A stretch of 64,000 nucleotides of DNA from Pseudomonadota bacterium (GTDB lineage Bacteria; Pseudomonadota; Alphaproteobacteria; Micavibrionales; UBA1664): the NCBI GenBank assembly GCA_009926935.1, contig RFNZ01000007.1:14200-78199 (forward strand), in the 5' to 3' direction. The stretch's first letter is position 1, and the number at the start of each line of letters is the position of its first letter. The notes beneath the pieces were generated by a model. It was not told where the DNA came from and made no database searches. It saw only the letters and a program-made list of their open reading frames with translations. A program made the position numbers and the translations under genes. This document shows, piece after piece, positions 53,912-54,679 of this stretch.

Positions 53912-54679
53912 GTGAGAATTGAGCTGAATAAAAACTTTGCACCCAATAGTGATGTTGATGGTTACGACGTGCGGCAGATGAAGAAGGCGCTGAACCGCCT
54001 TAGGTATTACATGCCACCACGCGATTCAGGGATCAGTGCGATTATCGATGGGGCTGTGTTTAAATCCCTCAAGCAGTTTCAGGCGGATCGTGGATTAAAA
54101 GCCACAGGTGTTGCGCGGCCGAATGATAAGACTGTTACCGCCATGAATGAGGCCTTGGCAGAAAAGCCTGACGGGAAATATATCTGGCGAACGGTGGGTG
54201 ACGAGGATGTGCGCCCAGAGCATGCAGCACTTGCAGATACGGTTAGAAGCTATGCGGATTCACCGGACCCCGGAGAGGATTATAATTGCAGGTGCTGGGC
54301 GGAGAAGATTGAGGACATTGATGATCCTCCGATTCAGCCTGTTTACCCCGAAGCGTTATTGCTTCCTTTGCTGCGAGTAGGCAAAATCTACACGCTTTGG
54401 AAAATATGGTCGGAAATAAAAAAACCGGAATGGACGTTAGGAAAGCATAAGTCACCGACACGATGGGGTAATCAGCTTAGAAACAGGCGTTGGACGCCTG
54501 AGCAGATTACCAAAACGATTGAAAAAGGCGCCAAGTATCCAGCGCCCAATAAGGTCAATAAAGGTAATACTGCTACACGTTATGAGTATGAAGGTCGCTA
54601 TGTTGTAAAAGATGATCAAACTAACGAGATATTACAAGTAGGCGGAGAAGATTTTAAAAGGCCTGTGTTTCGGAGATAG
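53912..54679 (+). CDS. Composite toxin-like protein: PG-binding-like domain, MuF/SPP1-gp7 C-terminal motif and colicin-E5-like tRNase domain
   Basis: The GTG at 53912 lies 8 nt after GGAGG. PG_binding_1-like pattern: VRQMKKALNRLRYY...IDGAVFKSLKQFQADRGLKATG. MuF signature: VRPEHAALADTV...DPGEDYNCRCWAE. The C-terminal RRWTPEQITKTIEKGA...ATRYEYEGRYVVKDDQTNEILQVG parallels the colicin E5 RNase domain as I recall it. Confidence 0.65.
   Translation: MRIELNKNFAPNSDVDGYDVRQMKKALNRLRYYMPPRDSGISAIIDGAVFKSLKQFQADRGLKATGVARPNDKTVTAMNEALAEKPDGKYIWRTVGDEDVRPEHAALADTVRSYADSPDPGEDYNCRCWAEKIEDIDDPPIQPVYPEALLLPLLRVGKIYTLWKIWSEIKKPEWTLGKHKSPTRWGNQLRNRRWTPEQITKTIEKGAKYPAPNKVNKGNTATRYEYEGRYVVKDDQTNEILQVGGEDFKRPVFRR

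Follow-up and report, generated by a model that had tools for sequence, protein, structure and literature searches.

That temperate phages encode MuF polymorphic toxins has been clear from genome analyses since 2012 (Zhang et al. 2012, PMC3482391; Jamet et al. 2017, PMC5576092). Only two of them, Apk2 and Bxa, have been characterised, the targeting of these toxins to the capsid is still a hypothesis (PMC11699363), and both their route to the target cell and their packing into the capsid remain an open question. The Tox-ColicinE5 entry in the table of Zhang et al. (PMC3482391) lists neither a MuF trafficking mode nor Alphaproteobacteria in its range, and the portions of the supplements of Jamet et al. 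(PMC5576092) available to us mention none of Colicin_E5, PG_binding_1, and Micavibrio. Here, we analysed a 64-kb stretch of contig RFNZ01000007.1 (hereafter the window, 64,000 nucleotides in full), part of the 795-kb scaffold_2 of a metagenome assembly from a Micavibrionales bacterium, in which a gene between cspA and purB encodes a PG_binding_1 bundle, a MuF core, and a colicin-E5-like RNase domain. It is well supported that the product of this gene is a polymorphic toxin of the MuF class with an E5-like RNase and that the cognate immunity gene beside it belongs to a new family. With moderate confidence, we lean further towards the reading that this toxin would be co-expressed with, and ejected by, a podovirus-like particle encoded in related genomes.

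A protein search with the toxin retrieved 312 relatives, whose named sources were Micavibrio aeruginosavorus, Micavibrio sp., and metagenome-assembled genomes of Rhodospirillales and Alphaproteobacteria. Among the best 120 of these 312, on which the domain and motif counts are based, Pfam detected MuF in 119, PG_binding_1 in 113, Colicin_E5 in 50, Colicin_D in 3, and DUF4258 in 3, with the other C-termini unannotated, and nearly all carried an NCRC motif at approximately aa 125. Similarity to the window toxin ended either at aa 131–135 or at aa 160–165. N-modules joined to other C-termini were up to 82% identical to that of the window toxin (73% in another case), whereas full-length E5-type relatives reached only 58–66%. 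The family therefore has, on its alignment, a constant N-module of 131 aa that ends at an NCRCW junction, followed by C-termini swapped among E5, colicin D, DUF4258, SLT, and unannotated types. Orphan cassettes starting within the MuF core were present downstream of full-length genes at four loci (L018, L028, L045, and L074; L numbers are our locus handles). With its constant N-module, similarity breakpoints, swapped C-termini, and orphan cassettes, the assignment to the MuF class of polymorphic toxins, which the initial annotation had proposed for the single gene, holds at the level of the family.

A scan of species-representative genomes yielded 76 family loci, nearly all in Micavibrio-like genomes, which are filed by NCBI under Pseudobdellovibrionaceae. 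Several genomes held two or three copies, one full-length member was found in Azospirillum rugosum (L014), and most family genes stood singly among housekeeping genes, like the window toxin. At L174:10001-10937, a 149-aa N-module overlapped a 170-aa open reading frame (ORF) in which an SLT lytic transglycosylase domain scored 27.7 bits; the two are probably one frameshifted family member with a payload directed against the cell wall and not RNA.

The domain composition of the toxin was determined with Pfam, judged against the curated gathering cut-offs, and with PHROGs and an AlphaFold2 model built on an alignment of 47 relatives. All three families named in the initial annotation (PG_binding_1, Phage_Mu_F, and Colicin_E5) scored above their cut-offs on the 255-aa product and were upheld by the PHROG and structure searches. 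The model (mean predicted local distance difference test [pLDDT] score, 88.9) consisted of two domains joined by a flexible linker: an N-domain of three helices and a small sheet (aa 1–132), the linker (aa 133–165), and a C-domain (aa 166–250). As read from the sequence and the model, the N-terminus has no hydrophobic stretch and belongs to the folded domain (pLDDT ~95). PG_binding_1 scored 33.8 bits (cut-off, 23), and the corresponding helices were located at aa 17–29, 47–59, and 73–83. Foldseek matched this bundle to the N-domain of SleB (6tci; target-normalised TM score, 0.74), 1lbu, and phiKZ gp144, and PHROGs matched aa 12–88 to the cell-wall-binding part of endolysins. By profile and predicted fold, this segment is a PG_binding_1 domain, for which peptidoglycan binding is predicted.

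Phage_Mu_F (PF04233) scored 37.1 bits (cut-off, 29.6), and aa 89–137 matched phrog_324 ("head morphogenesis", 8e-14) and phrog_4529 ("minor head protein and DNA pilot", 1e-9). The MuF match in most relatives spanned only model positions ~50–110. Since the match is confined to the C-terminal half of the model, the module is described as a PG-binding bundle plus a MuF core, with the bundle standing where the Pfam MuF model has its N-terminal half. The MuF signature reported earlier for the middle of the protein was thereby borne out as a domain and narrowed to its C-terminal core (aa ~84–132). W92, D97, P120, C126, R127, and C128 of this core were invariant in the family. A 116-aa head protein of Salmonella phage 36 (Tlsvirus), encoded between the portal and protease genes, showed 32% identity over aa 7–131, and the predicted viral structures matching the toxin model were mostly minor capsid, MuF, or head morphogenesis proteins. 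The linker is common to some non-E5 members up to aa ~162, where the second similarity breakpoint (aa 160–165) lies. A free-phage origin of the gene was considered and gained no support: IMG/VR and cultured phages matched the MuF core and little else, the Tlsvirus protein was the sole longer match, and no full-length relative of the toxin was found in either collection.

The C-terminal domain was assigned by three approaches that agreed with one another and with the earlier alignment of the last ~90 aa to the colicin E5 anticodon nuclease. Colicin_E5 (PF12106) scored 34.2 bits over aa 184–245 (cut-off, 25). In a phmmer search, aa 185–250 of the 260-aa translation from an upstream TTG matched the colicin E5 RNase domain (CRD) with E = 0.005; the aligned sequence, that of PDB 2dfx and 3ao9, is the one given in the initial annotation. 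Foldseek returned the colicin E5 CRD as its six best PDB matches, all with a probability of 1.0, target-normalised TM scores of 0.51–0.62, root-mean-square deviations of 3.1–4.3 Å over 70–91 columns, and modest E-values (2e-3 to 3e-2). The next structural neighbours were the tRNase CdiA-CT of E. coli NC101 and then PG-binding domains. The domain was modelled with pLDDT >90.

In colicin E5, the catalytic basic residues are Arg33, Lys25, and Lys60; a loop with Phe53, Lys55, and Ser57 holds the uracil and the 3' phosphate, and the G/Q-U dinucleotide is read by this loop together with Trp102, Asp105, and Arg107 (Yajima et al., PMC1669751). Arg33 aligned with R192 of the toxin, which is nearly invariant in the family, and Lys25 with R184, a position that is mostly R or K; Gln29 corresponded to Q188 and Trp35 to the invariant W194. 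The killing domain of ~90 aa is most likely a colicin-E5-like metal-independent RNase that would cut tRNA anticodon loops, not necessarily those of the tRNAs cut by colicin E5.

The ORF at 54683, which encodes the immunity candidate, begins 3 nt past the toxin stop codon. Searching with its 183-aa product in a word-indexed homologue search gave just two proteins, and an exhaustive search was used instead, which revealed a family of 447 representative clusters, mostly of 70–100 aa with some tandem forms. Proteins of ~75–85 aa homologous to the first half of the ORF were encoded directly downstream of all ten distinct E5-type loci (the window, L004, L005, L010, L011, L012 with two copies, L013, L014, L017, and L050). 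The family has no Pfam model. The predicted structure was all-beta (pLDDT 87.7), and the fold search returned no PDB neighbour, with nothing below E = 0.26 and no ImmE5. Homology to ImmE5 was rejected, as neither Pfam nor the profile-versus-PDB and fold searches gave a match to it; the profile-versus-PDB matches were confined to Kelch-repeat designer proteins, ran through a short "YDPE-D-W-F" hairpin motif, and were inflated by repeats. Both downstream ORFs had been suggested as immunity genes. The suggestion stands for the first, a good candidate judged by its family, which follows every E5-type member, whereas a role as a second immunity gene is unsupported for the ORF at 55267, which had no relatives in any related locus.

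To characterise the upstream regions, we compared 42 family genes with 748 control ORFs of the same loci. The family genes were preceded by a cassette with a fixed order: TTGACA, a 15-nt spacer, the palindrome AGGAATATATTCC, ~5 nt, a leader with the consensus ATCAA(C/G)GCCAC..GT.CGTC forming a hairpin followed by a T-run, 20–45 nt, a Shine-Dalgarno sequence, and the start codon. The palindrome (≤3 mismatches) was upstream of 37/42 family genes and 28/748 controls, TTGAC-N12-18-palindrome upstream of 32/42 and 0/748, and a terminator-like hairpin site upstream of 27/42 and 46/748, respectively. A 22-nt position weight matrix (PWM) of the leader, trained on 26 toxin loci only, had its best match in the whole window at 53860 (score 23.2; next best, 13.7), directly upstream of the toxin gene. 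Folding of 53855–53911, flanks included, gave −20.9 kcal/mol (z = −2.5), and an Rfam search of the leader retrieved no known RNA family; with its hairpin and T-run, the leader has the appearance of an intrinsic terminator. Lambdoid phages have late promoters that need an antiterminator. By analogy, a constitutive-looking promoter that runs immediately into a terminator, as in this cassette, would resemble such late promoters.

At L004:7265-9000, on the same scaffold as the window and ~310 kb away, a toxin paralogue of 66% identity was found with a single-domain immunity gene. Its upstream cassette was full-scoring (PWM 35.4), and it was preceded by a 76-aa ORF and a Fic-domain gene.

Eight Micavibrio-like genomes contained a podovirus-like gene cluster of ~15 kb; four of them were found via a toxin gene inside the cluster and four more via capsid-anchored look-ups. 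The cluster adjoined nadK and a phosphoribosyltransferase gene in 8/8 genomes. Its left end comprised an S24 repressor (minus strand), three small ORFs, a T7-type portal, Bbp19, a T7-type scaffold, and PilZ (minus strand), and its right part comprised the capsid, a 79-aa protein, tail tubular A, tail tubular B, a weakly gp14-like protein, a pectate-lyase spike, the large terminase, a cell-wall hydrolase, and a holin. PHROG matches were phrog_394 for tail tubular A (5e-47), phrog_376 for tail tubular B (2e-150), and phrog_38 for the terminase (2e-85). The lysis genes encoded a Hydrolase_2 protein and a holin matching GTA_holin_3TM, with housekeeping genes beyond, and no integrase or replication gene was seen in the cluster loci examined. 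The capsid was 76–84% identical among the genomes, compared with 55–61% for the adjacent nadK. Among 5182 capsid homologues, the best 120 were all at least 80% identical, and many lay on bacterial contigs of 0.3–2.4 Mb. The closest cultured phage was Pelagibacter phage Hodr, with the same gene order and a capsid of 52% identity. From its gene content and placement, the cluster looks like an undescribed domesticated phage element.

Family toxins were located inside the cluster in four genomes, that is, at 4/76 loci compared with ~0.5 expected by chance (P = 0.0016). The toxins filled three slots, one ahead of the portal, one flanked by the 79-aa gene and tail tube A, and one flanked by the two tail tubes (A and B). 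One contig carried both an in-cluster (L034) and a dispersed (L046) family copy. The in-cluster PG_binding_1 + MuF members at L005, L028, and L034 had no upstream palindrome and TTGACA cassette. When the leader PWM was applied to the eight cluster loci, its best match in the ~20-kb locus, both strands included, was 175–255 nt upstream of the capsid gene in 6/8; in the seventh, the best match was at the left promoter of the cluster, and in the eighth, the capsid-leader site ranked fifth. Under full independence of the loci, which does not hold entirely, the chance probability of the capsid-leader matches would be of the order of 1e-13. The capsid promoters also carried an AGG-N8-CCT palindrome between the −35 and −10 boxes.

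Two clusters showed further variation in their slots. In L028:9989-12855, a full-length toxin was followed by two orphan cassettes that kept only the MuF-core end, one of them with DUF4258, and this array was inserted between the small ORFs and the portal gene. The L086 cluster had no MuF toxin, and its variable slots (11332–12285 and 12977–14014) held two other proteins: one of 317 aa with a sub-threshold hint of the pre-toxin domain PT-TG, and one of 345 aa with PG_binding_1 and a coiled coil. These may be other cargo types.

The initial annotation had left the delivery route unexplained, and there is now a concrete lead in the podovirus-like cluster of the relatives, with its toxin-like capsid promoter and leader. 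The cluster is known from related genomes and not from the window; we infer that the toxin is co-expressed with the particle, into which it is probably packaged. In the mechanism that we envisage, the toxin would be switched on together with the late genes of the particle, and its MuF core would place it inside the capsid, near the portal. The particle would be released by the holin and cell-wall hydrolase of the cluster, and the toxin would then be ejected into the target cell; the PG-binding bundle may have a role as the toxin crosses the cell wall. The product of the translationally coupled downstream gene would serve as the cognate immunity protein, presumably blocking the RNase in the producer and its kin.

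Several observations weigh against this delivery by a particle or against its parts. The cluster is not in the window, and no capsid homologue on the 795-kb scaffold was among the best 120 of 5182. No MuF-family gene was found in the four clusters reached through the capsid gene, and phage Hodr has no MuF-like gene. The portal of the cluster is of the T7 type, and we know of no partnership between a MuF protein and a T7-type portal. The window cassette has a degenerate −35 box, and its palindrome and leader stand 38 nt farther apart. A 30-column PWM covering both palindrome and leader was tried and did not score the capsid promoters; the palindrome there stands at a different position relative to the −35 box, and the longer matrix therefore failed. 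Because only the leader-only PWM transfers, our claim is one of a shared leader and a similar palindrome, not of an identical promoter. Within the toxin, TIGR01641 (SPP1 gp7) scored below its cut-off (28.5 versus 39.65). Lys60 of colicin E5 aligned with Y208, the basic K207 being adjacent and not aligned; a 10-residue gap lies opposite the Phe53/Lys55/Ser57 loop, so that the uracil-binding loop is deleted; and the base-stacking Trp102/Asp105/Arg107 tail was not recognisable, the toxin ending in FKRPVFRR with no D-x-R pair. In view of the deleted loop and the unrecognisable tail, we file the domain as E5-like and do not assume the same four tRNAs; its substrate specificity may differ from that of colicin E5, and the nearly invariant Phe248 may stand in for Trp102.

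The absence of a MuF gene from the four capsid-reached clusters and from the related free phage is also what would be expected if the toxin were a soluble bacteriocin, unpackaged and freed by lysis of the producer. On this account, which we consider unlikely, it would act like a colicin, with the PG-binding/MuF module serving for receptor binding or translocation, and it might leave the cell via the holin and hydrolase of the element; such a release would explain the shared regulation, and the Hydrolase_2 and GTA_holin_3TM proteins are indeed encoded in the cluster. A toxin with no signal peptide and with a translationally coupled immunity gene, as in colicin operons, fits as well. However, a 131-aa module is small for receptor binding plus the crossing of two membranes, among phage proteins it best matches those internal to the virion (head morphogenesis and DNA pilot), and the four in-cluster members lie among head and tail genes, not lysis genes.

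The polymorphic C-termini, the orphan cassettes, and the strictly cognate immunity are marks of conflict among relatives and not of feeding, and they bear on a second account, in which an epibiotic Micavibrio relative passes the toxin to attached prey by a contact-dependent route, the PG-binding domain anchors it in the prey wall, and the MuF core is a leftover recombination handle. The near confinement of the family to Micavibrio-like genomes, with several copies per genome, and the member with a lytic transglycosylase domain speak for such a predation effector, but a full-length member occurs in the non-predatory Azospirillum rugosum, and no secretion-system gene was found in the window (ten largest ORFs and genes within ±10 kb). 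We regard it as quite unlikely. An intracellular toxin–antitoxin or abortive infection system, in which the toxin is not exported, its MuF-like part acts as a sensor or mimic of a phage head component, and the infected cell is then halted by the RNase, is very improbable: BECR-fold RNases do occur in toxin–antitoxin systems (PMC3482391), the locus is a small two-gene cassette with overlapping signals, and the same-scaffold paralogue adjoins a Fic gene, but PADLOC, the anti-phage defence annotation, gave no match for the toxin cassette, the PG-binding domain has no obvious cytoplasmic role, C-terminal replacement and orphan cassettes are typical of exported polymorphic toxins, and the upstream cassette is common to a structural capsid operon.

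Delivery of the toxin by a podovirus-like particle can be extended to a broader proposal, which is tentative and on balance doubtful: Micavibrio-like predators would carry a domesticated particle of podovirus origin, fixed in its chromosomal site, as a vehicle for interchangeable toxins. The dispersed cassettes, that of the window included, would be tied to the late genes of the particle through a common operator and a leader of the antitermination type, and their toxins would be packed via the MuF core and injected into rivals or prey, taking over from large internal core proteins that were lost. Hodr has ORFs of 783 and 1247 aa beside its tail-tube genes, and the cluster has no proteins of that size except the spike.

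The positions of the features described above are given in Table 1.

Table 1. Features of the toxin locus, in window coordinates, and loci of the podovirus-like cluster in related genomes.
Feature	Position	Strand	Basis
Toxin gene, 255 aa (PG_binding_1 + MuF core + linker + colicin-E5-like RNase)	53912..54679	+	ORF translation, Pfam, AlphaFold model, Foldseek
PG_binding_1 three-helix bundle, aa 17–83	53960..54160	+	Pfam, AlphaFold model, Foldseek, PHROGs
C-terminal core of MuF / SPP1 gp7 minor head protein, aa 84–132, ending in the NCRCW junction	54161..54307	+	Pfam, PHROGs
Flexible pre-toxin linker, aa 133–165, motif DPPI-PVYPE-LLLPLLR	54308..54406	+	pLDDT 52–77, similarity breakpoint, alignment
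Colicin-E5-like (BECR fold) RNase domain, aa 166–255	54407..54676	+	Pfam, phmmer, Foldseek
Immunity candidate, 183 aa, tandem duplication (aa 1–80 and aa ~92–183) of a ~75-aa all-beta domain	54683..55234	+	Own Shine-Dalgarno sequence
ORF107, third AT-rich ORF of the cassette, 107 aa, good Shine-Dalgarno sequence	55267..55590	+	Sequence
Operator-like palindrome AGGATTAAATTCCT (family consensus AGGAATATATTCC[T])	53811..53824	+	Cassette comparison
Conserved leader TTCAACGCCACGAGTCCGTCTCGCGGCGTTTTTTGTTTT, hairpin 53863–53889 followed by a T-run	53860..53898	+	Leader PWM, folding
Shine-Dalgarno sequence GGAGG, 8 nt 5' of the GTG start	53899..53903	+	Sequence
Podovirus-like cluster, ~15 kb, eight Micavibrio-like genomes	L005:2700-12500; L028:8900-19300; L034:3100-18100; L062:4100-14700; L086:5400-20800; L171, L172, L173:5300-20500		

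The toxin ORF starts with GTG; a TTG five codons upstream is a possible alternative, and the homologues begin at the position of the GTG. The three peptide stretches quoted in the initial annotation were all present in its translation. The AT-richness reported for the toxin gene and its two followers was confirmed, with a GC content at third codon positions (GC3) of 0.53 in the N-module, 0.47 in the linker, 0.37 in the E5 domain, 0.40 in the immunity ORF, and 0.45 in ORF107, compared with 0.60–0.73 in the flanking genes. As GC3 drops between the N-module and the E5 domain, there is a compositional break inside the toxin gene, at the module junction. Genes within ±10 kb of the toxin, with no phage gene nearby, and the ten largest ORFs of the window were housekeeping genes, and tblastn of the portal, capsid, tail, and terminase proteins against the window gave no matches; within these tests, the earlier statement that the window has no phage, type VI secretion system (T6SS), contact-dependent inhibition (CDI), or Rhs genes was sustained. 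Insertion scars were sought around the toxin cassette and rejected, as no convincing flanking direct or inverted repeats were present.

Other features of the window were recorded alongside the toxin locus. A divergent 138-aa ORF with a proline run (53383–53799, minus strand), whose start abuts the degenerate −35 region of the toxin, had a GC3 of 0.68, typical of the genome; it had no family match, and its relatives occurred only in near-identical contigs. The operator pattern had two matches in the window, that of the toxin and one in the promoter region (63811–63965, minus strand) of a pentapeptide-repeat gene (63810..63205), where TTGACT-N10-AGGTAATTATTCCT-ATCTAAT represents the same operator type and two AGG-N6-CCT palindromes are also present. 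A tRNA-Leu(UAA) gene at 63095–63181 directly precedes this pentapeptide-repeat gene, a 130-aa ORF, and an HTH_3 regulator gene, the last lying just past the end of the window. The tRNA-Leu(UAA) region may be the edge of an integrated element.

Our literature search retrieved no description of the toxin family, of its immunity protein and control cassette, or of the podovirus-like cluster that Micavibrio-like bacteria carry. For the question of how MuF toxins are packed and delivered, this lineage is a cleaner test case: the constant module is only 131 aa long, the many dispersed copies carry a recognisable cassette, and a single conserved cluster in the relatives has the same leader motif, which together make the packaging hypothesis directly testable. 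The combination of an E5-like RNase with a new immunity family adds new parts. The cluster may be a new domesticated phage element of podovirus origin, in bacteria that are studied as living antibiotics.

Compared with colicin E5, the toxin shares an RNase domain (PF12106; 2dfx, 2djh, and 3ao9) by an above-cut-off profile and the best structural matches. The segment K-x3-(R/K)-x3-Q-x3-R-x-W, which covers Lys21, Lys25, Gln29, Arg33, and Trp35, is conserved, as are the "YVV-D--T-E--Q" strands. However, the identity of the domains is only ~25%, the immunity protein is unrelated to ImmE5, and the carrier is a phage-type module, whereas the colicin has translocation and receptor domains. The known MuF toxins are alike in having MuF at the N-terminus, a C-terminal toxin that varies, at least one small immunity ORF immediately downstream, and no signal peptide; capsid targeting has been proposed for them as for our family and is equally unproven in the known members (PMC11699363). 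Our family differs in that only the ~50-aa C-terminal core of MuF is present, with the PG_binding_1 bundle replacing the rest, and in that most genes stand singly among housekeeping genes, with 4/76 loci in the podovirus-like cluster, whereas the known genes lie in prophage head modules. Its hosts are Micavibrio-like Alphaproteobacteria instead of mainly Firmicutes or Bacteroidales, and its genes come with a conserved cassette of promoter, operator, and leader of their own.

With CDI (CdiA-CT) and Rhs systems, the family shares a sharp junction motif before the point of divergence (here NCRCW; there VENN or PxxxxDPxGL), orphan cassettes in which just the last part of the constant region is retained, and cognate immunity genes; the structure search also placed the CdiA-CT of E. 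coli NC101 near the toxin domain. In contrast to those systems, there is no CdiB/CdiA, Rhs, or T6SS gene here, and the constant part measures 131 aa and not thousands. Lastly, the cluster of the relatives resembles gene transfer agents (GTAs) of the RcGTA type in containing only head, tail, terminase, and lysis genes, in its fixed chromosomal site in eight genomes, in a capsid more conserved (76–84%) than nadK (55–61%), in a holin matching GTA_holin_3TM, and in having further loci elsewhere in the genome that share its control sequences. A survey of GTAs reported only small RcGTA-like clusters, and no large one, in Micavibrio (PMC5721377). The cluster, known from its genes alone, differs from the RcGTA type in its podovirus-like ancestry (T7 / HTVC010P type), which is not that of an HK97-type siphovirus. 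If the proposed packaging is true, the toxin-loaded particle would be a counterpart of gene transfer agents that delivers protein toxins.

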